64,000 nucleotides of DNA from Candidatus Eiseniibacteriota bacterium (lineage in GTDB: Bacteria > Eisenbacteria > RBG-16-71-46 > SZUA-252): contig CAVUEC010000013.1 in NCBI GenBank assembly GCA_963740415.1, forward strand, positions 534,726 to 598,725, given 5' to 3'. Below the pieces are notes generated by a model, which was not told where the DNA came from, searched no databases, and worked only from the letters and a program-made list of their open reading frames with translations. Shown here in pieces: positions 14,934-56,760 of the stretch (position 1 is its first letter; each line of letters starts with the position of its first letter). The position numbers were made by a program, and so were the translations under genes.

Positions 14934-14966
14934 GACTCGCTTCAAGCAGTTGTCGAGAAGTTCGGA

Positions 14967-15004
14967 AGGGCCGCCGGGGAAACCCGGCGGCCCTCTCCGT
15001 TTTC
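14967..15004 (+). terminator. Rho-independent terminator
   Basis: 12-bp GC stem (14967-14978 with 14983-14994) and a GAAA tetraloop, followed by ctccgttttc. Confidence 0.7.
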
Positions 15005-15150: not shown

Positions 15151-15192
15151 AGCGGAGCGAAGGCCCCCTTGGCGGACCCCCCGAAAATGGCG

Positions 15193-15221
15193 TTGACAGG
15201 GGGGGGCCCGGCTGTTAGTTT
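15193..15221 (+). promoter_or_regulatory. Candidate promoter for the lipoprotein genes
   Basis: TTGACA (15193-15198), 17-nt spacer, TAGTTT (15216-15221). It directly abuts the last copy of the 24-nt motif. Confidence 0.35.
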
Positions 15222-15287
15222 CTGCTTGTCCCCAAACACGCACCCAAATGCCTGCCGGCGCCTAACCCTATATCCATGAGGAGTTTC

Positions 15288-16868: not shown

Positions 16869-16894
16869 CCTTGCCGAGGAAGAAGGAGTCACCG

Positions 16895-23600: not shown

Positions 23601-23762
23601 CTCCTCTCCAACGCAGGTAAAAGCGAGAAGACACCCCAAAGAGGATAAGGTAGACGACAGTAAGAGCCTAATCACCTCCTTACGCTAGCATGATTGGAAT
23701 CGAGCTAAAGCGATGTAAGTTCTCGGAATCGGGAAATCAGTCCCCGCTTTTTTACCTGATTG

Positions 23763-26610: not shown

Positions 26611-27653
26611 GATCGCGTCGCCGCTGGCGACGGTTCTGCGCGGGGGCGAAGTCGAGTCGGTCCACCGCGGCCACGTGGCCGTGGCGGACTCGCGCGGCCG
26701 CGTCCTGGCGTGGGCCGGCGAGCCCGATCTCCACATCTTTCCCCGTTCCGCGTTCAAGCCCTTCCAGGCGCTTCCCCTCGTCGAGTCGGGCGCGTTCGCG
26801 CGCTCGGGGCTGGGCATGGACGCGCTCGCGTTGATCGCGGGTTCCCATAGCGGCACCGATCGCCACGCCGCGATCGCGCGGACGATCCTGGCCGCGGCCG
26901 GCGTGGACGAATCCGCGCTCCGCTGCGGATCGCACCCTCCCTACGACGAGGCGACCGCCGCCGCGCTCGAGGCGCGGGGCGAGGCGCCCACGCCGATCCG
27001 GCACAACTGCTCGGGCAAGCATGCGGGGATGCTCCTGATGGCGCGCTTTCTCGGCGCGCCGGTCGAGAACTACACCGATCCCGCCCACCCCGTGCAGCGG
27101 AACATCTTCGCGCGCTTCGCCGAGCTGGTCGGCGAGGAGTTCGCCGACGCCACCCCCGCCATCGACGGCTGCAGCGCGCCGACGCCGCGGATGCCGGTGC
27201 GGACGCTTGCGTTTGCGTTCGCGCTTCTGGTGGGCGGCGTGGACCGCGCTGGCCACGATCTTCCCGCGCTCGCCATGATCCGCGACGCGATGCGGGCCCA
27301 CCCGGATCTCGTCGCTGGCGAAGGGCGGCTGGACACACTCTTGATGAAGGCGGTGCCGGGTCTCGTGACGAAGGCGGGCGCCGAAGGGGTGCACGCCACG
27401 GGAGACCCGAAGCGCGGGATCGGGATCGCGGTGAAGATCGAGGACGGATCCCGGCGCGCGCTGGGGCCCGCGGTGACCGTCCACGCTCGAAGCGCTCGGC
27501 GTCATCGGCGAGGCGGAGCGGAAGGCGTTGGCCAAGCACGCGGGCGAGCGGATCCGGAACGCTGCGGGGATCGACGTAGGCGAAATATGCGGGGTTGCCC
27601 TTATCGAAGGCTTGGACGCGAGTGGACGCCTGAAGACGGGGGGCCAGGGATGA
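26567..27653 (+). CDS. Asparaginase-II family protein. Frame broken at about 27477-27486. Start uncertain.
   Basis: VESVHRGHVAV, FPRSAFKPFQALP, GSHSG, HNCSGKHAGML, DGCSAP and KAGAEG. The C-terminus TLEALGVIGEAERKALAKHAGERIRNAAGIDVGEI...GQG-stop is read in frame 3 and ends at TGA 27651-27653. In the raw sequence the ORF runs on into ppdK as a 1321-aa fusion. Confidence 0.75.
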
Positions 27654-32827: not shown

Positions 32828-33075
32828 GGGTTTCCCCCGTAGCGGCGCCAATCCGCACGGGACATTGCAATTTGCACGGCCCTCCCCGGCCCGGCTAGCG
32901 ATCCCTCGAACCCCTTTTCGCTCAAGGCCTTCCAAGCCTCCCAATTTCAGCGCGTTGCCCACCCGTGGCGTGACGGTCCGTGGGCGCCCCGTGGCATGTC
33001 TCTTGCGCTCCGCCGGGCGGGTAAGTCCCTGGGGCACAACGGAACACACTCCCACCACGGAGCCAAAACTCGGCG

Positions 33076-36000
33076 ATGCGGTACCAATCCCGCCTCGGGT
33101 CAGCGCCCGCGCGCGCGCTCGTACGCGCCGCGCTTCTCGCGTTCGTTGCGTTTCTCGCGCTCGCGACGCCGGCGACCGCCGCGCCTGGGAGCGGCTCCGC
33201 GACGATCTCACCCGGTCCTTCCGTGGTCGCGGGCGCGGCCGGCACGTGGACGCTGGAATACGTCGCCGCCGAAGACTTCAACGGCGCGCTAGGCGGCGTG
33301 GTTGCGTTCGACTTCCCGGCCGGCTGGACGCCGCCGCAGATCGGTGATGCCGGCGCGGCAGGGTACGTCCAGGTCACGAGCCCGGCCTCGGTCGACAGCG
33401 TGTGGGTTTCGGGCCAGACCCTCGAGGTTCACGTCGGCGCGCCGTCCGGCGCCGCGTTCTTGACCGGCGATACGATCCGCGTCGTGTACGGCTCCGGCGG
33501 CGGCGCAGCCGCCGCGGTCGCCGGCACCGTGGCTCCCGCGACCGCGACGTTCCCGGTCTCGAGCGATCCCACCGACACGCTCGGCTTGGCACCGCTCAAT
33601 GCTCCGCCCTCGCTCACGGTCATCCCGGACGTGGTCACGCACGTCCGGGTGGTCGGTCCCTCGATGGCTCCGATCGGCTCGTTCGCGCGGAGCGCCGACG
33701 AGGACACGACCCAGTTGAAGCTGCGCGGCTACGACCGCTTCGACAATCCGGTCCGCATGATCGCCGGCCACTGGAGCGTGATCGGAGGCATTGGAACGGT
33801 TTCGCCGGCCACCGGCATCGGGACCGTGCTCACGCTCACCGCGGCCGCGACCGGCTACGCCGTCGGGGACAGCGGCGCGTGGGCCGACTCGACCGGGACG
33901 ATCACGGTGACCCACGGCGCCTACTCGCGCCTCGTCCTGAACGCGGACGTGATCGCGACCGCGGGGACCCCATTCGGCGCCAACGCCGCCGCGCTCGACC
34001 TGGACGGCAACGCGATCACCTCGGGACCGGGCTCGGGAGGCGCGCTCACGTTCGTGGGGTACGCGGACTCGACCGGATTGGCGCCGGCGGACCCCGATCT
34101 CGTCAGCGCCGGGTTCACGCTGACGTCGGGATCCTGGAACGCCACGCGCACCGCCCGCCGTTCGGGCACGTTCTGGCTCGCGGTCCGGGATTCCGCGACC
34201 GGCTTTGAATCGTCACCGCGCCGCCAGATCGACGTGGCGGCGGCGGCCGCCGATCACATCTCCGCGCGGCCCGACACGCTCGCCCTGACCGCCGGCGTTC
34301 CCGCCACGCTCACGGTCCTGGTTTTCGACGCGCTCGGAAACCGCGCGCCGACCACCTCGAGCGAGCTGCTCACTCTCTGGACCGACCGGCCCGCGGGCCG
34401 CTTCATCGATTCGTTCGGCTCGATCATCCACGAGGCGATCCTCTCGGTGGGCGCCGACTCGGTGAACCTGCGCTACGCCGACAATCAGGCGGGCGCCGGC
34501 GTCGGACGTCTCCGGGTCATCGACGGGGACGGCGCCGGATCGTCCCTGGGAACCGCGTCGGCGTACTCGGTCACGTCGCCGGGGCCGCCCACCGGGCTCG
34601 TCTCGCTCTCCGCGTCGCCGGACACCCTCATGGCCGACGGCGTCGACTCGTCGTTCGTCGCCTCGGGGCTCGTCACCGACGCGTACGGAAATCCGATTCC
34701 GGCCGGACTCCACTTCACCGCCACGTCCTCGCTCGTGACGCCGTTCGGCGACGTGGATCCGGGAACGCCGGGAGTTCAGTGGGCGACCGTCCCCGGCGGC
34801 ACGGTGAGCGGCTGGGTGCGCGCGGGCACGACGATGGGCGCGGGCGCGGTCTCCGTTCAGCTCGGAGCGGCCAACGGCTCGATCGGAATCCAGCTGGTTG
34901 CGGGCGTGCCGTCGGGCGCGATCGCGGTGACCGCCTCTCCCGATTCTCTCGCCGCGGACAGCGTGTCCACGCGGACCGTGACCGCGTCGGGACTTCACGA
35001 CGCGAACGGAAACCAGGTGGTCGACGGCGAGCCGTACACGGTCACGACCACGCTCGGCTCGATCGCATCGGCCGACCAGGATGCCGTGACGCCCGGGATC
35101 CAGCGCCGCGCGTCCGGCGGCTCGATTTCCTTCTCGCTCTTCGGCGGCGACGTGCTCGGGACCGCGACCGTCGGCGTGACGTCGGTGCGCGGGAGCGCGT
35201 CGGGGAACACCAACGTGCGGCTCGTGCCGGGCGGCGTGAGCGCGTCCGCCTCGTCGGTGGCCGCGACCACTCCGGCGCCGGTGGGGCCCGTGGGCAGCAC
35301 GATCACCGTGACGCTCCGCGACAGCCAGGGGCACGCCATCGCGGGCGTCCCGGCCGATTCGATTCCGATCGTGGTGCTCGGCGTGGCGGCGATGGTGACC
35401 CCGCTCGGCGCGTTCACCGACGCGGGCGGCGCGATCGACTTCCGCGCGACGGCGACGGTGGCGGGCACGGGGATCGTCTCGGCCACGGCGAAGGCAATCC
35501 CGCTCGGCAGCGCGCCGACGATCGTCTTCGCGCCGGGCTCGCTCGACCACTTCGTGCTCTCGGGACCGGGCGGCCCGCTTACGGCCGGCGTTCCCGGACT
35601 CGCTCTCGCTTTTCGCGCGTGACGCCTTCAACAACGCGATGCCCGCGTTCTCGGGGCTCGTGCTGCGCCCGGTGGTGCTCGCGGGCGGTGCCACGGCGCC
35701 CGATTCGGTCTTCCTGTCCGGCGGATCCGTGACCGTGGTCTTCACGCCGACCCTGGCCGCCCCGCTGACGATCCAGGTCCACGACGACGCGTCGCACTCC
35801 GTCACGCTCGGCCCGGTCGCGGTCGCGGCCGGCGCTCCATACCGCCTGATCGCGCTCGCGCCCCCGTCGAGCACGCTCGCCGCGGGGGACTCGATGGCGG
35901 TCCAGGCACGCCTCTTCGACGTCCACGGCAACGTCGTGCCGTCCGGCGTCGTGGGGGCCTCGGTCGTGGCCGGGAGCGGCTCGGTGTCGCCGGCGGCCGA

Positions 36001-39000
36001 CCCGACCGACCCCGGCGGCCTCGCCGATTTCACGCTCCACGCGGGATCGGCGCCGGGGCCGCTCGTCCTGCGAATGGTCGCGGCGGCGAGCGCCGCGCCC
36101 GACTCGATTCGCGCCGATTCGATCTTCGTCACGGTGAGCCCGGCCGCGACGGCGTCGCTCCAGCTCATCGCGGATTCGCTGAACTGGACCGCGGGCGTGG
36201 CGGTGCGGGTGCGCGTGCGGCCGCTCGACGCGTTCGGGAATCTGGTGACGGCCGACACCGCGACGATCGTCATGCGCCCCGCGGGCGCTGCTCGCTGGAC
36301 GCCGCCTTTCGGGGCGCTGTCCGCCGGCGAGTTCGTCACGTTCGCGACGGATACGCTCGCCGAGTCCGTCTCGCTCGCCGCCGACCGCGTGGGCGGCGGG
36401 ACGGGGAGCACGGGCCCCGCGGTCGTGTCGCCCGCGGCGCCGGCCCAGCTCGCGATCGTCTCGGGCGACGCGCAGAGCGCGGTCGTGAACCACAATCTCC
36501 CGGCCCCGCTCCTGGTTCGCGCGAGGGACGCGTACGGAAACCCGGCGCCGGGCGCGTCGGTCGTGTTCACGGTCGCGGCGGGGAACGGCTCGGTGGACGC
36601 GGTGGCGGGCGGCGCCGCCGACTCGATCGCCGTGGCCGACGGGTCCGGCTTCGCGGTCTGCGATATCGCGCGCCTGGGCACCGTCGCGGGCCCGGGGAGC
36701 GACTTCTTCCGCGCCCGCCTCCTCCTCGCGCCGCTGGCCCAGGTCCTGTTCACGGCCACGGCGACCCCGGATGTGGCCGCGTCGATCGCGGTGCTTCCGC
36801 CGTCGTTGTCGCTCGCCGCCGGCGCCACCGCGAACGTCACCGCGCAGGCGCGGGACGCCTACGGAAACCTGGCCCCCGGAACTCCGGTCACGTTCTTCCT
36901 CGGCGCGCCGGCGCTCGGGACGCTCGAGTCCACGGGCTCGACCTCGGGAGGCAGCGGCTCCCAGTCGGGCACGACCGGCGGCGTGGGCACGCTCATGGTC
37001 CGCTACCGCGCGCCGTCCTCGGCGCCCGCGGCGGACTCGATCTACGCCCGCGGCGTCACGATCGTGCCGGTCGGAATCCGCGCCACGGTGGGCGCGGCCG
37101 CGTCCGCGGCGCTTCAGATCCTTCCCGACTCTCTCTCCTGGATCGCGGGCTCGCCGGTGCGCGTGCGCGTGCGCGCGGTCGACTCGTACGGGAATCTGGT
37201 GGTGGGCGACACGGCGACCGTCGTGATGCGGCCGAGCGGTGCTGCATCGTGGGCGCCGCCGTTCGGCCCGATGACGGCCGGGGAATTCATCACGTTCGCC
37301 ACCGACACGGTGGCCGAGGCGCTCGCCTCGCTCGATGCCGACCGGGTGGGAGGCGGCACGGGGAGCGCGGGACCGGTGACGGTCCGGCCGGCGGCGCCCT
37401 CGGGATTGATCGCGATCGCGGCGCCGCGCGACACCCTGACCGCCGACGGGAAGAGCTCGGTCACGGTCACGCTGGGCCCCGTGCGGGACGCGTACGGAAA
37501 TCTCGTCCCGGCGGGATCGCTCGTCCTGGCCAGCGCGACGTCCGCGTCGCTCTTGGCGCCGGACGCCTCGCCGCTTCCCGGGCTCGATCTCGCCACCGCG
37601 GCCGACGGGCGGGCGTCGCTCATCCTGACCGCTCCCTCGGTCGCCGGTCTCGACACCCTTCGCGCATCGAGCCGCGTGGGAAGCGCGTCGGGGCTCCGCC
37701 CGTTCGCGTACCTGGCGCCGCCCACGGTTGTCTACGCCGGCGGATCGATCGCGCCGGTCGTGGTGGTGTCGGGCGCGTCCTACGCCTTCAAGGCCGGCGT
37801 CACCAACACGGGGAGCGGCGTGCTCCAGATCGGCGCGGGCACGACCCTTTCGTTCGGCTCGGGCGCGGGCGCGTACAGCGCGACGCTCGCCTCGCCGCTC
37901 GCGCTGGGATCCGGCTTGAGCGACACGCTCCGGTTCGCGAGCGTGGTGGTGTCGCCGAGCCTCACGCCGGGAAGCTACGCGCCGTCGCTCCGCGCGGTCG
38001 GGACCGACGGCACGGGCGACCCCTTTGACTTCTATCTCAACCTGGCGGGCGCGCAGACCCACGTCGCCGGCGTGAGCGTGGCCGCTGTGAGCGCGTCGCC
38101 CTCGCCGGTGCCGCTGGGCCACCCGGATCTCAGCCTCACCTTCGACGTCACGAACCGCACGTCGCTGCCCGCCACGATCGACGCGGCGAGCCTCGCGTAC
38201 TCGACCGGAGCCTTCGTCACGAACAGCGTGACGCCGCCGCTGCCCGCGGCGCTCGCCGCTTCCGGAACCACGCGGCTCACCGTCTCCGTGCGCGTGCCGT
38301 CGGGCGGCATCCCGTCGGGCACCGTGGTGAACGCGAGCCTGACCGCGACCGCGACGTTCCTGGGCTCCGTGGTCGCGGGCGTGAACCCGACGCCGCTCTC
38401 CTTCCAGGTGATCTCGGCGGCTCAGTTCGCGGCCAAGCCGGGCGGCGCGCTGCCCATCCGCTATCTCCGCGCCCGCACGTTTGGACCGACGGTCCGCGTG
38501 GCGAACCTCGGCGGCAGCGCGGTCACGCTCGCGAAGGGCGCGACGCGGCTGGTGCTCACGCATCCGGGTGGCGACGTGCTCTCGACCGGGCTTTCGGCGG
38601 CGACCGCGGTCGCGGGCGGCGACTCGGCGACCCTCGCGTTCGACTCGCTCGCCGTGGGCGCCGCGGTCGCTCGCGGGCGTTACGGCGCCCGGCTTGAGCT
38701 GAGCGGGACGGAGGCCGGGCTCGCGTTCGCGGACACGATCCCCCTAGATCCCGACAGCGTCTCGGTGCTCGAGCCGCCGCTGCTCGCGGTGACGGCGCCG
38801 TTGCTACCCGACACGGTGAGCGCGGGGCAGACGCGCCCCGTGCGCGTGAGGCTCTCGAACTCGGGCGACATCGCGTTCAACCTCGACGCGGCGACCACGC
38901 TCCGTCTCGGCGCGCCGCTCTCGACCGATCTCACGCTGGGCTCGGCGCCCGCGCTCAACCCCGGCGCGTCGCTCGATCTCGACTTCTCGGGCGGACCGCT

Positions 39001-40249
39001 CGGCTCGGCGCTCGCGCCGGGAACGGGACCAGTCACGCTCGACGTGCAGGGGACGGAGGACGGCCGCGCGCGGGCGCAGGCGGTTCCCGCGGGCGCGCTC
39101 GTGGCCCAGCCGCCCGCGGCGCTTGCGTTCGTCGCGGGCTCGGTCACGCCCGACACCGTGCGCGCGGGGCAGTCGTACGCGCTGACGGCCGCGGTGCGGA
39201 ACAACGGCGGGTCGACGTTCCTCCTCGATCCCGCGTCCACGCGTCTCGTCGTGACGGACGGCGTGGAGCAGGCGGTCGCGACGGCGGCGGGCGCGCCGTT
39301 CGCGCTCGGCCCGGGCGCGCAGGCGACCCTCTCCTTCCCGGCCGTGGCGTTCCCGGCCGCGCTGGCGAGCCAGCCCTATCCCGTATCGCTCGACGTTCAT
39401 GGAACGGAGTGGGCGCTCGCGGAGAGCGTCTCGGTCGTCTCGCCGCCGGCGGAGCTTCTCGTGATCGAGCCCGCGGCCGGCGTCCAGATTCGCGCGATCG
39501 ACGCGGGCGCTCCGGTCCAAGTCTCGTCGGGCCAGGTCGTGCGGGCGTGGGCCCTCGAAGTGACCCCGGTCCTGCCGCCGGGCGGCGTCACATCGGCCCA
39601 CCTGACCACGCTTCGCCTCACCGTGCTCATCGACGGCGGCGCGGGCGCGCCCTCGACCGCGCTCGCGGCGGTCTCGCTGCGGAGCGCGTCGGGAACGCTC
39701 CTCGCCCAGTCGGCGGCGGGCGGCACCAACCCCGTGACGCTCGCGCTCACGTCTCCGCTCTCGCTCACCGCCGCCTCGGAGTCGGTCTACGTGGACGTCG
39801 CGGTCTCGGGCGCGGCCGCCGCGCGCGACGTCGCGCTCCGTCTGGCCGTTGCCGGCGATCTCGTGGTTCTGGACGACCTGGCGGGCACGCCGGTCCCGGT
39901 TGTGGGCGGCGGCGGTCTCGCGTTCGCGCCCCTCACGTCCTCCACGCTCACGCTCTTTGCCAAGGCGCACGGTTACCCGAACCCGTTCCACGCGGGTCGC
40001 GAGGCGGTGCTGCTCTCCTATCTCCTGCCGCAAGACGCCGCGGTCAAGGTCTCGATCTACACCCTGCTCGGCGACCTCGTGCGCGAGATCCCCCTCCAGG
40101 CGGGCGCCACGGGCGGGACGCGTGGCTTGAACGAAGTGCCGTGGGACGGCCGGAACGGAAAGGGAGACCTGGTGCGGCCCGGTCTCTACGTCGCGCGGAT
40201 CGAAGGGCCGGGAGCCGCCGAGCAGATCAAGGTGGGGGTGACGCGATGA
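33076..40249 (+). CDS. Giant (~2390 aa) secreted Ig-like (Big_1-type) / CARDB-like repeat surface protein with a FlgD-Ig-like C-terminal domain. Frame broken at 35593-35597.
   Basis: Signal peptide ALLAFVAFLALATPATA. Big_1-like modules appear, for example SASPDTLMADGVDSSFVASGLVTDAYGNPIPAG. CARDB-like modules fill the second half (PDTVSAGQTRPVRVRLSNSGDIAF, PDTVRAGQSYALTAAVRNNGGSTF). The C-terminus reads YPNPFHAGREAVLLSY...VSIYTLLGDLVREI...WDGRNGKGDLVRPGLYVARI. Track ORFs 33076..35622 and 35639..40249 are one gene. Frame 2 is open from 35597 and reads DSLSLFARDAFNNAMPAF. Removing one base from CCCGG joins LTAGVP to it. Confidence 0.85.
36150..36430 (+). repeat. Internal repeat unit A within the giant gene
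   Basis: Encodes LQLIADSLNWTAGVAVRVRVRPLDAFGNLVTADTATIVMRPAGAARWTPPFGALSAGEFVTFATDTLAE...DRVGGGTGSTGP. It is clearly paralogous to 37100-37390. Confidence 0.75.
37100..37390 (+). repeat. Internal repeat unit B within the giant gene
   Basis: Encodes LQILPDSLSWIAGSPVRVRVRAVDSYGNLVVGDTATVVMRPSGAASWAPPFGPMTAGEFITFATDTVAE...DRVGGGTGSAGP. Confidence 0.75.
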
Positions 40250-42116
40250 CCGCGCTCCGGGCGTGGCTCGTCGCGATGGCCATCGTCGCGCTGGCGACGG
40301 CTTCGCGGACGCACAGGACGCCGGCACGGCCACGCTGCTTGCGTCGCCGGGGAGCTGGCCGACGACGGGCGCGATCTCGTCCTCGACCGCGCTCGCACTG
40401 GACCCCTCGGCGATCTACCTGAACCCCGCGGGGCTTGCGACCCAGGACGAGCGGACCTTCCTGTTTCACCACGGCCTGCTCCAGTTCGACACGAGCTGGG
40501 ACATGGCCGCGATCGCTTATCCGATCCCCGGGCTCGGAGCGGCCGGGCTCGGCGTGGCGCGCATCGGCTCCTCGGGCATCGACGCGTACGACGCGTCCAA
40601 CCAGCCGATCGGGACGATCGGCTACAGCGAGACCTCGCTTGCGGCGAGCGTCGCGCGGCACCTCTACGGCCCTCTCGTGGCCGGCGTGACGTTCAAGGTG
40701 CTCAGCCAGTCGCTCGGCGACATGTCGGCCGCGGCGCCGTCGATCGATCTTGGATTTGCTTACAGACCCGCCAAGCTCCTCGGCGGGCAGATCGGGTTCG
40801 CGGCCGAGAACGTGGTGGCGGGCTCGCTGGATCTGGGAGGGCCGACCGAATCGCTCGACCGGACGTTCCGCCTCGGTCTCGCGTCTCCCGAGTGGCGTTT
40901 CGGGCAGCTCATGGCCGCCCGCGGCATCGTCGACCTCGAGCGCGCCGGCGCCGAGGGGACGAAGAGCCGCTTCGGCCTGGAGGTGAACCGGTTTGGAATC
41001 GGAGCGGTGCGCGCGGGGCTGGACCGCGGCCGCGCGATCCTGGGATTCGGCGTCCAGTGGCGCCGCTACGGCTTCGACTATGCGTTTGCCCAGGGCGAAA
41101 TCGAGGCGACCCAGCAGATCGCGCTTCATCTCGCCTGGGGCGAGCCGGTGAGCCAGTACGAGTCCCGCCGCCGGGCCGAGTTCGCCAAGGCGGCCGAGGA
41201 CACGGTTCGCGCCCATAGGGCCGCGATCGTCGCGCGCGATCGCGAGAAGGCGGAGGAAGCCGAGGCCAAGGGCGACTACGAAGCGGCGCTCCTGCTCTGG
41301 GAGATCCTGATCCGCGAGCGGCCGGACGACGCGACGTTCGCCGCCCGGGCCGAGCGCGCTCGAACCGAAATCGCGGATCGCGCGGAGCAGGACCTGGAGG
41401 TTGAGAGCGCGAGGCGCCTCGCCTCCACGGTGACGGCCATGACCCGCGCCGCGCTGAACCGCGGCGACGTGGAAGAGGCGGCCGGAGTCTGGCGCGGGTT
41501 CGTGCGGCCGGGCGTGACGCCGCCTGGGTTCGTCGCCGACAGCGTTGCCGCGATCGAAGCCGAGTACCGCGCGGCGCGCGACCGCGCGGTCGCACAATCG
41601 GTCGCGCGCGCGGATTCGCTCCACCGCGTCGGGCGCGTGCTCGACGCCGCCGAGGCTGCCGCGTTCGCGCTCCGCCTGAATCCCGAGGATCCGGCCGCGC
41701 TCAAGGCGTGGAACTCGCTCCAGCTCATCGTCGTGAAGAGCGCCGAGACGTCGGCGTCGCTCACGCGGAAGCTGGAGGCTCTGACCGCGATCCACACGGC
41801 GTCCGGCGCCTTCACCGAGGGTCGCTACGCCGACGCGCAGACGTCGATTCGCCGCGCGCTCGCGCTCGAGCCGTCGAACGCGGAGGCGCGCGCCTGGCGC
41901 GACCGGATCGAGCGCCGGCTGGCCACCCCGAAGACCGAAATCGACGCCCGCGTGAAGCAGCTCTACATCAAGGGCATGGAGGCCTTCTCGAGCGGGGACT
42001 ACCGCGAGGCCCTCCGGAACTGGGAGCAGATTCTCGTGCTCGACCCGCTGAACGAGAGCGCGCGGCGGAACGTGCTCGAGGCTCGCGAGCGGATGAAGGC
42101 GGAGGCGAGTCGATGA
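40246..42116 (+). CDS. Putative outer-membrane beta-barrel protein with a C-terminal TPR-like domain. Frame broken at about 40290-40305.
   Basis: ATG 40246 overlaps the giant gene's stop (ATGA) and encodes the signal peptide MTALRAWLVAMAIVALA in frame 1. The mature protein (FADAQDAGTATLLASPG...DPSAIYLNPAGLA..., alternating barrel-like pattern) is in frame 3. One missing base, for example in the GG at 40299-40300, joins them. The C-terminal half has TPR-like repeats (GDYEAALLLWEILIRERPDD, GDYREALRNWEQILVLDPLNESARRN). The PorV/UPF0164-like assignment rests on pattern only. Confidence 0.6.
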
Positions 42117-44590
42117 AGCTGAGCGGCCGGTCCATGACGCCCCGTCGCTTCCACCTCCGCGTGCCCGCGGAGGAGGTCCGGCTCGCCGAGATCCGCGACT
42201 TCGTCCAGGAAGTCGGCGAGAAGCTGATGATTCCTCAGAAGGTGCTCGCCAACACCAAGCTCGCGGTGGACGAGGCGTGCACCAACGTCATCAAGCACGG
42301 CTACAAGGGCGAGGCCGGACAGATCGAGATCGTGGTGACCGGGAACGGCCGCGACTTCTCGATCGCGATCAAGGACTTCGGGAAGAGCTTCGACCTCCGG
42401 AACGTCGCGAGCCCCGATCTCAAGATGTACGTCGAGACGAGGAAGCGCGGCGGGCTGGGCGTCTTCCTGATGAACCAGCTGATGGACGAGGTGCGCTACC
42501 GGGCCGGCCACGACGGGAACGTCCTCACCATGTCGAAGCACCTGAACCGGCGCCGGCGTCCGCGGAAGGGCAATGAGCGCCGCCGGACCCTCCGCTTCGC
42601 GTACACGGTCCAGGCGTTCGGCGTGCTCACCATCCTGGTCGCGATCGCGTTCGGCGCGATCCACCTCCGCCAGCGCCGGGACATAGAGCGCGAGGTGCTC
42701 GGCCAGGCCAGGGACGCCGCGACCAACCTCGCGGACGCCGGGCTGGAGGTGGTGACGCGCCGGGAGCCGATGTCGCCCGAGCAGACGCGGCTCAACCAGT
42801 CGATCCGGGTCCTCCTCAGGGCTCACCCGGAATTTGCCGGCGCGCGGGTGCTGGACGCCACGGGCCGCGTCTGGGCCTCCAACATGTTCGAAGAACTCTT
42901 CACCTCCCGCACGCTTCCCCCGGGTGCGCGGGCCGTTTCCCCCGGAACCGGCTCCACCGGAAAGCCCGGACCGCCGGTCACCGTCGTGGAGCCGTCCAAC
43001 GGGAAGTCCCGGGAGGTCACGTTTCCCATCGTCGAATCCAGCTCGGGCGCCGCGCACGCCCTCGGCTGGGTGCAGATCGTGGTTCGCGAGTCGGCGATCA
43101 CCGACCGAATCGTCGCGTCGGGGATCGAGCTTGCGACGATCGCGCTCATCACCCTCCTGCTGGGCTGCGTGCTCTCGACGATTCTCATCGCCGTATTCGT
43201 CCAGCCGATCCAGGCGCTTTCGGACAGCGTGCGCGCGATCGGCGAGGGGACCATGGTCGCCGAGATCGGCGCCTCGGGGAACGACCAGATCGACGACATC
43301 GCGCGGGCGTTCAACGAGGTCACGGCGAAGTTCCGCGCGGCCCAGGGACACCTGATCGAGCAGGAGCGTCTCCAGCAGGAAATGCAGGTGGCGCAGGAGA
43401 TCCAGCAGATGCTCCTTCCGCGCCAGGTGCCCGAGCTGGAGGGCTTCGAGCTCGGCTCGCTCTACCGCGCGGCCAAGGAGGTGGGCGGCGATTACTACGA
43501 CTTCCTGCCGGTCGACGACCGCACCGTGGGCGTCGTGGTCGCGGACGTCTCGGGCAAGGGCGTCCCCGGCTCCCTGGTCATGACGATGATCCGGACCGCG
43601 CTCCGCATGGAGGCCCGCGGCAACCGGTCGGCGTCCGACGTGATGTCCAAGATGAACGCGTTCGTGACCGAGGACATGAAGAAGGGAATGTTCGTCACGA
43701 TGTTCTACGTCGTCCTCGACTCGGTGAACCGCGTGGTGAGCTACGCCAGCGCGGGGCACAACCCGATGATTCTCTACCGCGGCGAATCGGATGAGACCTA
43801 CTTTCTGAAGCCCAAGGGAATCCCGGTCGGGATCAACGTGCCCGACGAAGAGCTCTTCCGGAAGACGATCAGCGTCGAGAAGCTGACGCTCCGCCGGGAC
43901 GACATGCTTGTCATCTACACGGACGGGATCACCGAGGCGATGAACCCGGATCGGGATCAGTTCGGCGAGGGGCGGCTCCTGGCCGCGATCCGGCGCTACG
44001 GACACATGACCGCCCAGGAATTCGCGGACGCGCTAAATGGAGAAATCCAGGAGTTCACCGGGGGAGCGCCGCAGAACGACGACATCACGCTGGTCGCGAT
44101 CAAGGAGCGGGTCCCGGTGGAACAGCACCTCGAGGCGAACCGCCGCGAGCTCTTCCGGCTGATCGAGCAGGAGGGTGTCCCGATCGCCGAGGCCTGCGAC
44201 CGGCTCAAGATCACCGCGGGTACCTACTACCGGTACAAGCGCCGGGTGGAGTCCATGGGCGGCGAGGAGGGACTCAAGCCGTCGCGGCCTCAGGGGCCGA
44301 TGGCTAGGGCCAGCCTCGAGGTGGAGGCGGCCATCTTGGAAATCGTGAAGGCCGAGCCCACTCTGGGGGCGAAGCGAATTCTAGAATTGCTCAAGGGCGC
44401 AAATCGTTGCCCCGCTGAGCTTTCCGAAAGGGCCATTTACGAGACCCTGCGCCGGAACAAGCTCAACACTAGGGAAAAAAGGCTCGAGTTCAGCCAAAAC
44501 GGGACCGATAAACGGATGGCGAGGCTCGCCCGGGCATTGTCGGAAGCTGCCCCGTCCCACCCGAACGAGCAGCAAGGAGGCGAAGCATGA
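42113..44590 (+). CDS. Membrane multidomain signalling protein: RsbW-type anti-sigma kinase domain, 2 TM helices with an extracytoplasmic loop, HAMP, PP2C/SpoIIE phosphatase, and a C-terminal transposase-type HTH region
   Basis: ATG 42113 overlaps the upstream stop (ATGA). The N-terminus LAVDEACTNVIKHGY...GGLGVFLMNQLMDEV is an HATPase_c_2-like (RsbW/SpoIIAB) pattern. TM helices are near AFGVLTILVAIAFGAI and LATIALITLLLGCVLSTILIAVFV. A HAMP-like PIQALSDSVRAIGEG...IDDIARAFN follows. The SpoIIE/PP2C blocks are GGDYYDF, VVVADVSGKGVPGS, AGHNP, YTDGITEA and DDITLV. The tail contains GVPIAEACDRLKITAGTYYRYKRR and ILEIVKAEPTLGAKRILELL...IYETLRRNKL. Confidence 0.8.
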   Translation: MKLSGRSMTPRRFHLRVPAEEVRLAEIRDFVQEVGEKLMIPQKVLANTKLAVDEACTNVIKHGYKGEAGQIEIVVTGNGRDFSIAIKDFGKSFDLRNVASPDLKMYVETRKRGGLGVFLMNQLMDEVRYRAGHDGNVLTMSKHLNRRRRPRKGNERRRTLRFAYTVQAFGVLTILVAIAFGAIHLRQRRDIEREVLGQARDAATNLADAGLEVVTRREPMSPEQTRLNQSIRVLLRAHPEFAGARVLDATGRVWASNMFEELFTSRTLPPGARAVSPGTGSTGKPGPPVTVVEPSNGKSREVTFPIVESSSGAAHALGWVQIVVRESAITDRIVASGIELATIALITLLLGCVLSTILIAVFVQPIQALSDSVRAIGEGTMVAEIGASGNDQIDDIARAFNEVTAKFRAAQGHLIEQERLQQEMQVAQEIQQMLLPRQVPELEGFELGSLYRAAKEVGGDYYDFLPVDDRTVGVVVADVSGKGVPGSLVMTMIRTALRMEARGNRSASDVMSKMNAFVTEDMKKGMFVTMFYVVLDSVNRVVSYASAGHNPMILYRGESDETYFLKPKGIPVGINVPDEELFRKTISVEKLTLRRDDMLVIYTDGITEAMNPDRDQFGEGRLLAAIRRYGHMTAQEFADALNGEIQEFTGGAPQNDDITLVAIKERVPVEQHLEANRRELFRLIEQEGVPIAEACDRLKITAGTYYRYKRRVESMGGEEGLKPSRPQGPMARASLEVEAAILEIVKAEPTLGAKRILELLKGANRCPAELSERAIYETLRRNKLNTREKRLEFSQNGTDKRMARLARALSEAAPSHPNEQQGGEA

Positions 44591-45240
44591 AGGGAATCGA
44601 CGTTTACGTCGAGGAAGCGGTTCAGAACCGAGGGGTCTCGGTCCTGCGGGTTTCGGGCTACGTGGACACCACGACCAGCCCCGATCTCGAGCGCAGGCTC
44701 CAGGCCCTCCTCCGGGAAAAGCGCTATCACATCGTGGTCGACCTCTCCGGGGTCGAATACATCTCGAGCGCCGGCTGGGGGATCTTCATTTCCGAGATTC
44801 GAGAGATCCGCGAGCAAGGCGGCGACCTGAAGCTGGCGGGGATGATCGCCGATGTTCGCGAGGTCTTCGATCTCCTCGAATTCGAAAACATCTTGAAGGC
44901 CTACGCCGACACCGAAATGGCGGTCGGGTCCTTCGGCGCGGTCCCGTCGTCCCCGTCTTCCTCGTCCACGGGCGGTGCGACCGACGGCCACAATTCCTCC
45001 TCGCAGTCGTCGGCGGGTCACCGCTCGGAGACGGTTCTGTCGGACGAGGACCTGATTCGCGAGATCGCGCGCCAGCATCCGGAGTTCGGGCTCATGCGGA
45101 TCCAGAAAGAGCTGAGGAAGCCCGAGCGCGGCGGCCGCGATCTGAATCCGGTCCAGATTTACGTGCTCTTGCGGAAGCTGGACCTGGACACCCGCGAGCG
45201 CCGCGCGGCCCTCGCCAAAGAGAGCCAGCCGAGCAAGTAA
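44587..45240 (+). CDS. STAS-domain anti-sigma-factor antagonist (RsbV/SpoIIAA-like) with a Ser-rich linker and a C-terminal HTH-like module
   Basis: ATG 44587 overlaps the upstream stop (ATGA). The STAS pattern is VLRVSGYVDTTTSPDLE...HIVVDLSGVEYISSAGWGIFI...GGDLKLAGM..VREVFDLLEF. The C-terminus LIREIARQHPEFGLMRIQKELRK....IYVLLRKLDLDTRERR aligns with the tail of the preceding protein. Confidence 0.8.
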   Translation: MKGIDVYVEEAVQNRGVSVLRVSGYVDTTTSPDLERRLQALLREKRYHIVVDLSGVEYISSAGWGIFISEIREIREQGGDLKLAGMIADVREVFDLLEFENILKAYADTEMAVGSFGAVPSSPSSSSTGGATDGHNSSSQSSAGHRSETVLSDEDLIREIARQHPEFGLMRIQKELRKPERGGRDLNPVQIYVLLRKLDLDTRERRAALAKESQPSK

Positions 45241-45262
45241 CTCGACATTGAAACCGCTTGAC

Positions 45263-45306
45263 CGCGGGGGGTCGCGTGCCTATCGTCAGGTGCACGGCCC
45301 CCCGCG
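45263..45306 (+). terminator. GC hairpin after the operon. It may be a terminator and overlaps a candidate promoter.
   Basis: CGCGGGGGG (45263-45271) pairs with CCCCCCGCG (45298-45306), and an inner CGTGC pairs with GCACG. There is no clear U-tract. The same region contains TTGACC (45258-45263), a 17-nt spacer, then TATCGT (45281-45286). Confidence 0.35.
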
Positions 45307-45380: not shown

Positions 45381-47540
45381 ATGGCGATGAGGATCGAAAT
45401 CGAGGCCGTCCCGCGGATCCTGCCGATCGTTCTGATCGCGGCGGCGATCGCGCTCGGGCTCTGGGCCTATCTCACCCGCTATCCCGCGCTGGCCTCGCGC
45501 CGGCGTCTCCTGCTTCTGGGCGCCAGGCTCTTAGCGCTGGCCGCGCTTCTCTTCGCGTCGCTGGCCCCCGTGATTCGCTACCCCGAATCGTCCAAAGCCC
45601 GAAATCGACTTTTGATCCTGGTCGACCATTCCGGAAGCATGCAGGTCCACGACGCCGCCGGCGGGCGCAGCCGCCGTGACGCCGCGGACAGCGTGGCCGC
45701 CCTCGCGGCTTCGGCGCTCGGGGGGCGATTCGATGTCCGCGTGGCCGCGTTCGACGCGACGCTCGGGCCCTTCGGGCGCGGCGCCAAGCCGGCGCTGGGC
45801 GGCTTCGCGGGGGGCGGCGAAACGGCGCTCGGAGATGCGTTCCGTGCTGCCTTGGCCCGCCTCGATCCCGACTCCATCGCCGCGTTTCTCGTCTTGAGCG
45901 ACGGCGCCGTCAACCGAGGCGAGGATCCGGAGCAGGCGCTTGGCTCGGCGGTGCCCGCCTTTGGTCTCACGGTGGGACGCGCGGCCGATCCGCCGACGGT
46001 GGGAATCGCCGGCGTCGACCTGCCTCCCGAATTCATCGTCGGAAAAATCACTCCGGTGACCGTCACGGTCCGCCAGGGGAGCCGTCCCTCGGCGCAGGGG
46101 GTGGTGCGGGTGAGCGAGGAAGGCCGGGAGCTGGGCCGCGCGCCCTTCTCGCTGACCGCTCCCGGCGCGTCCGCGCGGATTTCGATCCCTGTGACGCTCG
46201 GGGCGCGGGGAAAACGCTTTCTGAGCGTCGAGCTGCTCGACGTCGCGGGCGATCCGATGAAGGAGAACAAGCGCCGGCTTGTGGCCGTCAACGCGCGGCC
46301 CGCGCGCCGATCGGTTCCGCTCCTGGCCGCGTCCTGGGACTGGGATCTTCGCTCGCTGGTGCGCGGCGTCGAGGAGGACACGACCTGGGGCGTGACGCGG
46401 GTGACGCCCTCCGGTGCGTCGCAGGTGACCCGGGTAGGCGACGGAACGGTCTCGTTCGACGCGCTGCTCGAGGACGCGGAGGCCGTCGTGGTGCGCTACG
46501 ACGCGTCGACCGTGACGCCGGAGCGCGCGGCCGCGCTGATGCGATATCTCGAACGCGGCGGCGGCATCTTCTTCTGGGTGGACCCGCGATTCCGGCCGCC
46601 CGTGGAATCACCGCTCACGAAGGCGCTCCACGTGGCGTGGCGTTTCTGGGGCGATCCGCTCGGCCCAATCGCGTCACCCGAGCTGACGCCCGCCGGAAAG
46701 ACGCACGAGCTCGGACTCCTGGGCGGTGACGCGGCCAGCGCGGCCGCGACGTGGAAGGCGCTGCCGCCGGTCGAGCCTCTGGTCGCGATGGATCCGACCG
46801 GGGGCCCGCTTCAGCCCATCCTCGTCGGGCGCGTTTCGAACGGGTCGATCCCGCTGCTCCTCGCGGGAACGGTCGGCAAGGGCCGGGTGGCGGTCCTCAA
46901 CGCGGCGGGAGTTTATCGGTGGGGTCTCACCGCGTCCGGCATCGCCGAACGCGCGGGAATCGAGGCCGCGTTCTTCGGCGGCATGTGCGAATGGCTCAGC
47001 GCCGGCGCCTCCGAGCGCCCGGTGCGGATCGAGGCGCCCGAGATCACGCCGGAGGGAAGGCCGATTCCGGTCCGCGTGACCGCGGCGGGCGCGGCCAGTA
47101 CGGCGGCGGCGCGCGTCACGGCGCGGGGCGTGGGCCGCGCTGGCCCCGCCGTCGCGGCGCCGCTCACACCATCTGCGGGCGGTGAGTGGGCGGGATCGAT
47201 CCCGCTCGATCCGGGCACGTACGTGTTGCGCGTCACGGTGGAATCGGGCGGTCGCGCGATCGGGGTGGACAGCGTGCGCGTCGCGGTTGGAGTTCAAGGA
47301 TTGGAGTACGAGTCGCTCGAGGCCGAGCCCGCGACCCTTCAGCGTCTGGCCGCGGGATCGGGCGGCGTGGCCGCGCCGGTCGACAGCGCGGACGTCGTGA
47401 TCCAGAAGCTTCGCTCTCCCGACCTGATTCATTCACGCCTCGCGGAGCTCGACCTGTTCCACAATCCGCTGCTCTTCGGAATTCTCATCATCGCGCTCGC
47501 GCTGGAGTGGGCGCTGAGAAGGAAGTTTCACTTGATGTAG
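45381..47540 (+). CDS. Membrane-anchored von Willebrand factor A (VWA) domain protein, BatA-like N-terminus
   Basis: Two N-terminal TM helices, the MIDAS motif LILVDHSGSM, a later flavodoxin-like block (AVVVRYDAS...LMRYLERGGGIFFWVDP), and a C-terminal TM helix LLFGILIIALALEWAL. Confidence 0.7.
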   Translation: MAMRIEIEAVPRILPIVLIAAAIALGLWAYLTRYPALASRRRLLLLGARLLALAALLFASLAPVIRYPESSKARNRLLILVDHSGSMQVHDAAGGRSRRDAADSVAALAASALGGRFDVRVAAFDATLGPFGRGAKPALGGFAGGGETALGDAFRAALARLDPDSIAAFLVLSDGAVNRGEDPEQALGSAVPAFGLTVGRAADPPTVGIAGVDLPPEFIVGKITPVTVTVRQGSRPSAQGVVRVSEEGRELGRAPFSLTAPGASARISIPVTLGARGKRFLSVELLDVAGDPMKENKRRLVAVNARPARRSVPLLAASWDWDLRSLVRGVEEDTTWGVTRVTPSGASQVTRVGDGTVSFDALLEDAEAVVVRYDASTVTPERAAALMRYLERGGGIFFWVDPRFRPPVESPLTKALHVAWRFWGDPLGPIASPELTPAGKTHELGLLGGDAASAAATWKALPPVEPLVAMDPTGGPLQPILVGRVSNGSIPLLLAGTVGKGRVAVLNAAGVYRWGLTASGIAERAGIEAAFFGGMCEWLSAGASERPVRIEAPEITPEGRPIPVRVTAAGAASTAAARVTARGVGRAGPAVAAPLTPSAGGEWAGSIPLDPGTYVLRVTVESGGRAIGVDSVRVAVGVQGLEYESLEAEPATLQRLAAGSGGVAAPVDSADVVIQKLRSPDLIHSRLAELDLFHNPLLFGILIIALALEWALRRKFHLM

Positions 47541-47662: not shown

Positions 47663-49465
47663 ATGTCATCCATCGCACGCCGTGTCGCGCCGGCGATCGC
47701 GGCCCTGGCCGCGCTCGTCGCGCCGGCAATCGCGGCCTTCGCCGCGCTGTGCGCTACGCCCGCCGTCTCGGCTCGGGCCGATCTGCTCCTCAACGAGGTT
47801 CTCTACGATCCGGCCGGAGCGGACGAAGGGCATGAATTCGTCGAGCTGTGGAATCCCGACTCGGCCGCGCTCTCCCTCGATGGGCTCACGATCGAGGCGG
47901 GCGACGGCGCCCGTCCGGGCAGTTGGGACGTGATCTGGCGCGGGGCCGCGGGCGCCGCGGCGTCGCCTCACGCTCCGCTTCTCATCGCCGGCGACGCGCT
48001 GCTGGGCTCCCTCCAAAACGGGCCCGACGCGGTTCGATTGAGCCGCAACGGCGTCGTCCTCGATCTCCTCGGATACGGAGAGCTTTCGGCCGCGGCGCTC
48101 TACGAGGGTTCGCCCGCGCCGGACGCGGGCTCGGGACAGAGTCTCGCACGACTCCATGACGGCGCGGATACCCGGAACAACACGGCGGACTGGGCCATCG
48201 AAAGCGAGCCCACGCCCGGTCTTCCCAATCATCCCGACTATCGGCTCAGGCTCTCGCGGTCCGGGCTCCCGGCCTCACCCCAGGTTGCGTGGCCGGGAGA
48301 TCCGATTTCCATCCGCGCCTGCGCTCGAAACGACGGCCTCCTCGCGGTCGATGCCGCGCGATGGGGACTCGAGGCCGAATGGGGGCGGGACGACTGGGCG
48401 GGCGGACTGGAAGCCGGATCCGCGGGCGCCGAGTCGAGCGTCGTTTGGGCGGCCGCCGCCTCACACGACGGAATCACGGTGGACTCGGGCGACAGCGCGA
48501 CCGTCTCACTCGCGCTCACGGCGCCGGCGCCGGGCGTGTGGCGGCTCCGCGCCCGGATCGTGTGTCGCGACGATCCCGCCGAGTCGCCTCGGGCCGCGCT
48601 CCGTCCGGACACGCTCGAGGTCACGCTGCGCTCGGTCGCCGGGCCCGCGGTGGTGAACGAGTTCGCGTTCCGCGACGCGGGAGCCGGCGAGTGGATCGAG
48701 ATTTGGTTCCGCGATTCCGTCGACGACATCGGCGCCATTTCCATCGCGGACGCCACCGCCGCTCCGCGGCCCATCGATCGAGGCGCTCTGCCAAGGCCGG
48801 CTCCCGCCGGCGCGCTCGTGGTCGTGGCGCAGGACCCGGCCCTCGTGCGCGCGCGCTTCGGTCTTCCCGACTCGGTCGTGCTGGGAGTGGTCGGCGGATG
48901 GCCGTCGCTCAACGACACGGGCGGGGAGGATGGGATCGCGGATCGCGTTCGGATCGTGGGGAAGGACGGCGTCCCGTGCGACGCCGCGCCCTATCGTGGT
49001 ACCGCGTCCGCGCGCGGCGGCAGCCTGGAGCGCCTCTCGGCCGATTTCGCCAGCTCGGCCGCCGGAACGTGGGCCGAGACGATCGATCCCAAGGGTGGCA
49101 CGCCGGGCCGCGAGAACTCGATGCGCGCCCCGGGCGCGAGCGTTGCCGCGCGAGGGCCGCTCCTGGTCGCCGGCGGGCGCGTGGTTCGCCGCGGAAACGG
49201 CGGCGCCGTGCCCGTAGTGCTTCGCACCACGCCCGCAGCGCGGGGCCGGCGCCTCACCGTGCGCGTGCACGATCTGCTGGGCCGCCCCGTTCGCACGCTG
49301 GTCGAGGGGCAGAGGTTCGCATCGGACGGCGCCTTCGTGTGGGACGGCCGGGACGACCACGGCGACGCGGTCGCGCCCGGCCTCTACGTCATTCGCGCCG
49401 AAGCGCTGCCGGAGGACGACGCGTCGATCCGCGCGTCCAGCGTTCCGATGGCGGTGGCGCCGTGA
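47663..49465 (+). CDS. Secreted protein with two lamin-tail domains (LTD) and a FlgD-Ig-like C-terminal domain
   Basis: AGGAGG RBS and a signal peptide. LTD signatures are LLLNEVLYDPAGADEGHEFVELWN and VVNEFAFRDAGAGEWIEIWF. The C-terminus reads VRVHDLLGRPVRTLVEG...FVWDGRDDHGDAVAPGLYVIRA. Confidence 0.75.
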   Translation: MSSIARRVAPAIAALAALVAPAIAAFAALCATPAVSARADLLLNEVLYDPAGADEGHEFVELWNPDSAALSLDGLTIEAGDGARPGSWDVIWRGAAGAAASPHAPLLIAGDALLGSLQNGPDAVRLSRNGVVLDLLGYGELSAAALYEGSPAPDAGSGQSLARLHDGADTRNNTADWAIESEPTPGLPNHPDYRLRLSRSGLPASPQVAWPGDPISIRACARNDGLLAVDAARWGLEAEWGRDDWAGGLEAGSAGAESSVVWAAAASHDGITVDSGDSATVSLALTAPAPGVWRLRARIVCRDDPAESPRAALRPDTLEVTLRSVAGPAVVNEFAFRDAGAGEWIEIWFRDSVDDIGAISIADATAAPRPIDRGALPRPAPAGALVVVAQDPALVRARFGLPDSVVLGVVGGWPSLNDTGGEDGIADRVRIVGKDGVPCDAAPYRGTASARGGSLERLSADFASSAAGTWAETIDPKGGTPGRENSMRAPGASVAARGPLLVAGGRVVRRGNGGAVPVVLRTTPAARGRRLTVRVHDLLGRPVRTLVEGQRFASDGAFVWDGRDDHGDAVAPGLYVIRAEALPEDDASIRASSVPMAVAP

Positions 49466-56690: not shown

Positions 56691-56760
56691 CCGCTTCGCT
56701 TCCCGCTCTCCCTTCAATCAATCGCCCCGACGCAACCGTTGACTCCCAAAGGAGGAGATC

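Follow-up and report, generated by a model that had tools for sequence, protein, structure and literature searches.

We analysed a 64-kb stretch of DNA, referred to here as the window (~70% GC), from a soil bacterium that belongs to an uncultured phylum and is known as a metagenome-assembled genome (MAG); the closest named relatives of the proteins encoded in the window come from Candidatus Eisenbacteria MAGs. Four consecutive genes on its forward strand encode a giant secreted protein (gene 1), a PorV-like barrel protein (gene 2), a membrane protein that joins an RsbW-type kinase to a PP2C phosphatase (gene 3) and a STAS protein (gene 4). The unit that they form is real, and its conservation runs deep. 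We propose, tentatively and at somewhat less than an even chance, that they form a sigma-54-transcribed operon in which a surface protein and its outer-membrane partner are coupled to a membrane partner switch, the output of which most likely runs through helix-turn-helix (HTH)-like modules carried by the switch proteins themselves.

Organization of the locus

Gene 1 (33076..40249, +) yields, after removal of one base at ~35591-35592, a 2390-aa secreted immunoglobulin (Ig)-repeat protein with a probable C-terminal sorting domain of the type 9 secretion system (T9SS) type. Gene 2 (40246..42116, +), which lacks one base at ~40296-40300, follows with ~622 aa comprising a PorV/PorQ-like 14-strand barrel and a ~320-aa tail of helices and tetratricopeptide repeats (TPR). 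Gene 3 (42113..44590, +; 825 aa) is laid out in the order RsbW-type kinase, transmembrane (TM) segment, sensor loop, TM/HAMP, PP2C and an IS481-type HTH region, and gene 4 (44587..45240, +; 217 aa) consists of a SpoIIAA/RsbV-type STAS domain (residues 1-117, with Ser61 as the predicted acceptor), a variable linker and a helical tail (146-208). Genes 3 and 4 are clean open reading frames (ORFs); genes 1 and 2 are not.

An initial annotation, made by inspection of the letters alone, had placed ATGA start/stop overlaps at 40246, 42113 and 44587, and all three are present. As the sequence reads, four-base overlaps occur at 4 of the 30 same-strand junctions in the window, two of them (42113 and 44587) within the operon; the overlap at 40246 goes unscored in this count, since the frame of its ATG differs from that of the gene 2 body, and with it included there are five in the window, three of them in the operon. 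A single such overlap is ordinary for operons, and it is the run of three that is notable. Shine-Dalgarno-like sequences (GGAGG or AGGAGG) lie inside the upstream gene ahead of both gene 3 and gene 4, and overlapping junctions, or junctions of a few bases, recur in most of the relative loci described below. Rfam and tRNA scans found nothing. Scanning 32.5-49.7 kb for sigma-70 promoters and terminators gave no convincing terminator and one promoter-like match, at 45258-45286 (+) in the 140-nt gap between gene 4 and the next gene, g5, which suggests that g5 and its successor, g6, form a separate transcription unit.

The surface protein and its PorV-like neighbour

Gene 1 had been described as a ~2390-aa Ig/CARDB protein with a FlgD-Ig-like end. 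The raw sequence holds two ORFs rather than one, 33076-35622 (848 aa, frame 1) and 35639-40249 (1536 aa, frame 2), and it is the removal of an extra T at ~35591-35592, recognized by comparison with the relative L007, that gives the 2390 residues; the ortholog is intact, at 2380 aa, in L001 and L002. A hydrophobic, signal-peptide-like stretch occupies residues 10-38, and Pfam finds Invasin_D3 and Big_1 repeats, in keeping with the Ig-repeat part of that description, while CARDB (E 3.4e-4) and FlgD_ig (E 1.5e-5) each fall slightly under the Pfam cut-off. The description had overlooked that the protein ends in a probable T9SS-type sorting domain: the C-terminus matches Por_Secre_tail (TIGR04183; 21.4 bits, cut-off 23), FlgD_ig (25.3 bits, cut-off 27) and the C-terminal domain of PorU (E 8.9e-5), and the C-terminal ~200 aa are conserved across phyla.

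Gene 2 had been read as a barrel-like protein with a signal peptide and a TPR tail. All three parts are there, but the signal peptide (from the ATG at 40246) and the body (40299-42116) lie in different frames, and the likeness to PorV had gone unnoticed. Restoring one base at ~40296-40300 would give the signal peptide MTALRAWLVAMAIVALA-x-GFA, with cleavage before DAQ; an ortholog that is 95% identical (P0242) begins with the same MTALRAW, and the gene is intact, at 624 aa, in relatives. The existing gene call is a 617-aa ORF with a GTG start (P0241). The N-terminal 300 residues match the PorV family model NF033709 (PorV_fam; E 2.4e-14, 53.7 bits, cut-off 90), Pfam confirms the TPR, and the AlphaFold2 model (pLDDT 82) has 14 strands at residues 64-292 followed by helices at 296-616. 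Among solved structures its best Foldseek match is 6h3i_F (E 1.5e-7, TM-score 0.61), with FadL barrels next; 6H3I is a type 9 translocon entry, and its chain F we take to be PorV in the SprA translocon complex. Anchoring at the surface through PorU:PorV and PorQ:PorZ pairs has been published, and PorV also binds the C-terminal domains of cargo (PMC5562754).

A membrane kinase/phosphatase with a transposase-derived C-terminus

The architecture first given for gene 3, an 825-aa protein with an RsbW-type kinase, two TM helices, a ~150-aa loop, HAMP and PP2C, stands throughout, with the loop nearer to 145 aa; it omitted, however, an HTH region at the C-terminus. Pfam places HATPase_c_2 at residues 17-142 (E 4.8e-30), HAMP at 361-403 (E 2.3e-5) and SpoIIE/PP2C at 468-664 (E 8e-50), hydrophobic segments cover 160-186 and 332-370, and the ~145-aa loop between them has a weak sCache_3_2 match (E 2.6e-4). 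NCBIfam adds RsbW (E 7e-22) and SiaA (residues 332-663, E 2.1e-21). The catalytic residues of both domains are conserved: across 12 homologs there is no variation in the kinase N, G1 and G2 boxes (DEACTNxxKHGY, DxGxSFD and GGLGxF), which align with RsbW 6m36_A, or in the PP2C motifs GGDYYD, ADVSGKG, YTDG and NDDIT with their metal-binding aspartates, which align with Rv1364c. Rv1364c (3ke6_A) is also the best sequence match among solved structures (E 2e-15, plus a weak second match to the kinase domain), and PDB 6k4e (SiaA) matches at E 1.7e-10. A GTG start for the gene at 41708 was rejected, as the homologs all begin at the ATG at 42113.

The HTH region (44132..44482, +; residues 674-790) carries Pfam matches to HTH_23, HTH_28 and HTH_32 at residues 674-779, and residues 677-789 match positions 2-112 of the NCBIfam model of the IS481 transposase (E 1e-15); judged by these profile matches, the N-terminal bipartite HTH DNA-binding region of an IS481-type transposase is present in gene 3. 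A search of the C-terminus by sequence against solved structures gave no significant match. Is this a live insertion sequence? That idea was rejected, as gene 3 stops 35 residues past the HTH region, without an rve or DDE domain in Pfam scans, and the conservation of the fusion in hundreds of species points to a domesticated domain. Homologs of gene 3 from two or more phyla retain the region, both in Eisenbacteria and in the more distant locus L056 (HTH_29, E 1.9e-7). Gene 3 has more than 3000 relatives in the database; the best 120 of them are 66-100% identical to it and, except for one truncated entry, 790-840 aa long, and the precomputed Pfam hits of 102 of the 120 include an HTH family.

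The STAS protein and its tail

That gene 4 encodes a STAS protein is borne out by Pfam (E 7.6e-20), by TIGR00377 (65.9 bits, above the cut-off of 53.45) and by the fit of its AlphaFold2 model to SpoIIAA in the SpoIIAB complex (1th8_B; Foldseek TM-score 0.90), and its invariant Ser61 aligns with the phospho-serine of SpoIIAA. The initial annotation passed over what follows the STAS domain, namely a variable, disordered linker and then a nearly invariant four-helix tail (residues 146-208) whose homology to the latter half of the C-terminal region in gene 3 is supported by BLASTP (E 2e-7) and by hhalign (probability 96.6%, E 6.6e-10). Enzyme and predicted substrate thus carry related modules at their C-termini. 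A search with gene 4 of 1.84 billion representatives returned many 200-240-aa proteins, 31-47% identical, that match over both STAS and tail, so that the fusion of the two constitutes a broad family. Among the distant loci, the STAS proteins of the FCPU426/Firestonebacteria type (255-291 aa) have the same tail according to profile hidden Markov models (HMMs; E 9e-7 to 5e-5, in a small set), although BLASTP of an FCPU426 STAS tail against that of gene 4 found nothing.

Conservation across candidate phyla

Scanning one genome per species gave 545 relatives of gene 3, of which 80 loci were fetched; synteny was counted by tblastn with the window proteins among non-redundant loci, in each case those with enough flank. 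Conservation of the four-gene order, put forward at the outset as a check, is clear from these counts. A gene 2 homolog stands directly upstream of the gene 3 homolog in 68 of 68 loci, a protein with a C-terminal sorting domain like that of gene 1 stands upstream of gene 2 in 57 of 58, and a STAS domain lies at most 800 nt downstream of gene 3, or is fused to it, in 65 of 68. The loci fall into an Eisenbacteria group (67-86% identity), a Krumholzibacteria/Latescibacteria-type group (44-49%) and a third group that includes FCPU426 and Firestonebacteria (40-43%). Within the phylum, identity is 67-86% for gene 3 and 85-96% for the STAS protein as against 55-65% for genes 1 and 2.

The unit varies in its downstream part. 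Gene 3 homologs of the Krumholzibacteria/Latescibacteria type reach 1410-1452 aa (L056, 9866-17282; L049, 9968-17011), the 1452-aa homolog in L056 having three STAS domains fused after its HTH. Downstream of gene 3 in the Krumholzibacteria-type loci lie a ParA-like ATPase (Pfam, L049), a TPR protein of ~375-395 aa (Pfam, L056) and two short STAS genes without a tail; the same TPR protein is found 3' of the module in the FCPU426-type group (30-31 loci) and is absent from the window.

In the window, two genes follow the module on the same strand. The first, g5 (45381..47540, +), encodes a 719-aa membrane protein with two N-terminal hydrophobic segments, one C-terminal hydrophobic segment and a DHSGS (vWA-like) motif, and has no match in Pfam or NCBIfam; the second, g6 (47663..49465, +), encodes a 600-aa secreted protein with a Pfam LTD (lamin-tail) domain (E 4.8e-9) and a FlgD_ig-type C-terminal sorting domain (E 3.1e-8). 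Downstream of the module, g5 is present in 16 of 16 Eisenbacteria and 14 of 18 Krumholzibacteria-type loci, and g6 likewise in 16 of 16 Eisenbacteria and most Krumholzibacteria-type loci; both may be part of the same system.

Seven loci (L010, L012, L016, L020, L022, L024 and L025) carry an Eisenbacteria-type operon at 67-70% identity under the labels Limnocylindrales, Omnitrophota, Hyphomicrobiales, Bacteroidota, Binatia, Acidobacteriota and Dormiibacterota; these are probably mis-binned contigs.

The upstream region and the question of a sigma factor

A second feature missed at first is a sigma-54-type promoter. The motif TGGCAY-N5-TTGC is the sigma-54 -24/-12 consensus; it matches once in the whole window, where 0.11 matches are expected by chance, and the match (TGGCATGTCTCTTGC; 32992..33006, +) lies 70 nt 5' of the ATG of gene 1. 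Sixteen Eisenbacteria loci have the motif once each, with one match elsewhere, and in the aligned loci it takes the same position 5' of gene 1; L072, the 17th, shows the variant CGGCACGGCTCTTGCC (GGCAC-N5-TTGC). Together these are all the Eisenbacteria loci checked in which the region is included. Since L001, L002 and L007 are one species, these 17 loci amount to 15 distinct ones, and the 16 exact matches to 14. No such motif was found in the loci outside Eisenbacteria, where the start of gene 1 often lies outside the fetched flank. An alignment of the upstream region in 15 Eisenbacteria loci, from the CDP-alcohol phosphatidyltransferase gene to gene 1, shows a conserved block, CGTGGCATG.CTCTTGCG, together with two further elements. 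One, TTGCAATTTGCA (YTGCR-N2-YTGCA; 32865..32876, +), lies ~125 nt 5' of the -24 box and is a candidate regulator or enhancer site. The other is a leader motif between promoter and start codon, TAAGTCCCTGGGGCACAACGG (33022..33042, +), with the conserved columns TAA.TC.CTG.G...CAACG (TAAGTCYCTG...CAACG), which has no match in Rfam.

The initial annotation had envisaged a self-contained circuit with no sigma factor nearby. The second half of this claim holds: Pfam scans of all the sizeable window ORFs, those in gaps of the gene map included, were negative for Sigma70 domains except for a trace of Sigma70_r4_2 (weak, E 9e-4) that falls within the HTH region of gene 3, and no sigma-70-family gene is listed in the annotated +/-10 kb around L001-L003, apart from a faint Sigma70_r4_2 within the gene 3 homolog of L003. 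The first half is doubtful, because a conserved sigma-54 promoter means that the operon needs RpoN and an activator encoded elsewhere; no Sigma54_activat domain was found among the window ORFs scanned.

Proposed mechanism

How might these parts work together? In the reading we favour, the gene 2 barrel would most likely hold the sorting domain of gene 1 at the cell surface, as PorV does for PorU and PorQ for PorZ, or it could instead shuttle gene 1 by way of the C-terminal domain, and its TPR tail would in either case hang into the periplasm. Gene 3 would sit in the inner membrane with its ~145-aa loop in the periplasm as the input, possibly reading the tail of gene 2, the loading of gene 1 or some other envelope cue; HAMP would relay this signal to the cytoplasm and tip the balance between the RsbW-type kinase and the PP2C phosphatase, both of which would act on Ser61 of gene 4. 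The likeliest output would be the transposase-derived HTH-like module common to genes 3 and 4, rather than an adjacent sigma factor, with the phosphorylation state of the STAS protein deciding whether this module binds DNA or gene 3. Control of the production or export of the giant protein, in whichever direction, would then be plausible, as had been suggested at the outset. A narrower version makes the STAS protein itself the output, as a phosphorylation-gated DNA-binding or gene 3-docking factor whose transposase-derived winged-helix tail would be released or masked according to the state of Ser61, while gene 3 would read the loading or engagement of the giant protein through the TPR tail of the PorV-like barrel; this version strikes us as unlikely.

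What counts for the sigma-54-transcribed surface switch is the conserved catalytic and acceptor residues, the PorV-like fold and sorting-domain matches, the HTH region with its homologous tail, the sigma-54 motif, the sigma-70 negatives, the strict linkage of the four genes and the precedent of SypE/SypA, a fused kinase/phosphatase system in a surface-structure locus without a known sigma factor. Several considerations weigh against it. The host is an uncultured MAG, and whereas the domains, catalytic residues, fold matches, synteny and promoter motif are observed, the anchoring, the nature of the input, any DNA binding and the direction of regulation are inferred from sequence. The scores of the gene 1 sorting domain and of the gene 2 PorV match lie under the curated cut-offs, and both genes are frameshifted in the window. 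Pfam gives the gene 4 tail weak support as an HTH (HTH_21, E 1.4e-4, below the cut-off), and HTH_21 appears in 3 of 28 diverse STAS-plus-tail proteins scanned with Pfam, so that it is chiefly homology with the C-terminus of gene 3 that justifies the term HTH here; the tail has no match to solved structures by sequence, and Foldseek of the gene 4 model gave STAS matches only, so that the fold of the tail cannot be assigned. The STAS proteins of Krumholzibacteria-type loci lack the tail, which is therefore not essential to the module. Finally, the sigma-70 negatives cover the window and the +/-10 kb of three relatives and are compatible with a sigma factor encoded elsewhere.

If the narrower version, with the STAS protein itself as the output, is true, the locus would hold a sigma-independent partner switch that carries a signal from the outer surface directly to transcription, and it would hint at the type of target to be sought for orphan STAS regulators such as SypA. 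The domesticated HTH-like module on both antagonist and enzyme provides a concrete idea for the output of sigma-less partner switches, just as the strict linkage of a sorting-domain protein and a PorV-like barrel in several uncultured phyla provides one for the input. The locus would also be a case of parts of T9SS type, namely a PorV-like barrel whose TPR tail is periplasmic, in a host that is not one of the Bacteroidota and wired to a regulator.

Alternative explanations

First, the module may be a canonical switch with a distant target, which we regard as somewhat unlikely. The membrane-tethered RsbW-type domain of gene 3 would sequester a sigma factor encoded elsewhere, possibly the primary one as in Chlamydia, which unphosphorylated STAS would set free, and the HTH parts would be accessory; the altered availability of sigma-70 would also shift its competition with sigma-54, which reads the operon. 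The kinase domain does match RsbW and SpoIIAB, as the STAS fold matches SpoIIAA in its complex with SpoIIAB, and the unusually high conservation of gene 3 and the STAS protein relative to genes 1 and 2 would be in line with a partner from the conserved core, for instance RNA polymerase or a sigma factor. There is precedent in the chlamydial RsbW, which targets the housekeeping sigma-66, with a proposed effect on the competition between sigma-54 and sigma-28 (PMC11619594). Yet the window and the annotated flanks of the relatives hold no sigma-70-family gene, and a distant sigma factor leaves unexplained both the linkage to the sorting-domain/PorV-like pair and the HTH-like domains on the two switch proteins.

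Second, the output may be post-translational, an explanation that we consider unlikely. Unphosphorylated STAS would act on a partner other than DNA, such as the secretion or assembly machinery or g5/g6, and thereby license export, with the HTH-like module serving as a docking device. Such outputs have parallels: SypE/SypA acts downstream of transcription of syp, a surface-polysaccharide locus (PMC3610818), the control exerted by BtrV is post-transcriptional, and type III secretion is the process on which BtrU and BtrW act (PMC8256260). The same module on enzyme and substrate would suit docking, g5 and g6 accompany the module in two clades, and Pfam gives weak backing to a genuine DNA-binding HTH in the tail. 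The C-terminus of gene 3, however, spans the whole bipartite N-terminal DNA-binding region of IS481 with its three HTH families, more than docking needs.

Third, the locus may be decaying in this strain. The frameshifts would then be real, with gene 1 cut before its sorting domain, gene 2 left without a signal peptide and the regulatory pair alone functional, a situation compatible with the other readings. Both disruptions stand in the deposited sequence, where gene 2 is called as the GTG ORF P0241, and within 33-54 kb they are confined to genes 1 and 2, the genes from 45.4 to 54.1 kb being intact. Both are nevertheless single-base indels; the contig is 630 kb long, close relatives come from long-read assemblies, in which such consensus errors are common, and both halves of each gene keep a high third-position GC content and 69-81% identity to intact orthologs. 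Either a consensus error or a real mutation would be compatible with these data, and we think it distinctly unlikely that the locus is in decay.

Lastly, a general-purpose regulator pair that merely happens to lie beside a surface-protein gene is highly improbable: four-base overlaps are common in this genome, but the gene order and the tight junctions are kept across several candidate phyla, so that chance adjacency was rejected on the synteny counts, and the span of 40-86% identity argues against one recently transferred element.

Other genes in the window

Sorting-domain proteins are frequent in this genome. A second cluster with such a protein lies at 10977-19165 (+), where a 1318-aa product ending in FlgD_ig, Por_Secre_tail and CHU_C matches is followed by proteins of 549 and 772 aa without a Pfam match and with a 4-base overlap at 16865; further secreted-protein genes with FlgD_ig-type C-terminal or lamin-tail domains are located at 21678-23684 (-), 24420-25016 (+) and 56743-57405 (+). 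The several sorting-domain proteins in the window suggest that a T9SS-like sorting system exists in the genome. A separate curiosity is a 1321-aa ORF at 26567-30532 (+) with a complete L-asparaginase II domain (22-304) and a full pyruvate phosphate dikinase (403-1316); this could be a genuine fusion, or else an indel or the loss of a stop codon could have run two genes together.

Comparison with known systems

The initial annotation had treated the union of kinase and phosphatase in one protein, without a sigma factor, as exceptional. This was overstated, because there are precedents both for a kinase fused to a phosphatase and for partner switches that lack a sigma factor, among them SypE/SypA, Rv1364c, HsbR and the chlamydial Rsb system. 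PA3346/PA3347 (PA3346 being HsbR), BtrUVW, RbaV and HmpV are other non-canonical partner switches, and for the sigma-less SypA, BtrV, RbaV and HmpV the targets are unidentified (PMC8256260). Literature searches found no description of the present module, of Eisenbacteria with a T9SS or of partner switching combined with sigma-54.

One close likeness is to SypE/SypA of Vibrio fischeri, in which a single polypeptide, SypE, has an RsbW-type serine kinase at its N-terminus, a receiver domain (REC) in the middle and a PP2C phosphatase at its C-terminus; both enzymes act on a STAS protein, SypA, in a surface-structure locus, with no known sigma target (PMC3610818, PMC8256260). SypE differs in being cytoplasmic, with the central receiver as its input, and it lacks HAMP, HTH, membrane segments and a periplasmic loop. 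SypA is tailless and consists of one STAS domain, and the syp locus makes a polysaccharide rather than a sorting-domain protein with a PorV-like partner. That locus is reportedly sigma-54-dependent as well.

Rv1364c of Mycobacterium tuberculosis is likewise a multidomain fusion, of PP2C, RsbW-type kinase and STAS, and the L056 homolog with its three fused STAS domains comes nearer to this all-in-one layout than gene 3 does. In Rv1364c, which has been linked to the regulation of sigma-F, the phosphatase precedes the kinase, and the protein is cytoplasmic and without HAMP or HTH. SiaA, of the Pseudomonas aeruginosa SiaA/SiaB/SiaC system, resembles gene 3 as a HAMP-PP2C phosphatase; the output of that system is a diguanylate cyclase that controls biofilm formation, not a sigma factor. 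Its kinase, SiaB, is separate, there is no HTH, and gene 3 scores 76 bits against an equivalog cut-off of 700.

The chlamydial RsbU-RsbW-RsbV1/V2 system offers another parallel, in that its sensor phosphatase is proposed to read a periplasmic signal and no linkage of rsb to rpoD has been described (PMC11619594); kinase and phosphatase are separate there, and HTH domains and any link to a surface protein and PorV are lacking. On the surface side, gene 2 is like PorV and PorQ of the T9SS in its predicted FadL-like 14-strand barrel and in its place next to the gene for a partner whose C-terminal domain is probably of T9SS type, the arrangement of PorU:PorV and PorZ:PorQ (PMC5562754), and is unlike them in scores that fall under the curated cut-offs, in its additional ~320-aa TPR/helical tail, predicted to be periplasmic, and in a host outside Bacteroidota. 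The differences from the known switches are that kinase and phosphatase flank a membrane-embedded HAMP sensor and that the enzyme has a transposase-derived HTH region and its predicted substrate a homologous tail; a further difference is the invariable linkage of such a switch to two surface-side genes, one for a sorting-domain protein and the other for a TPR-tailed PorV-like barrel.

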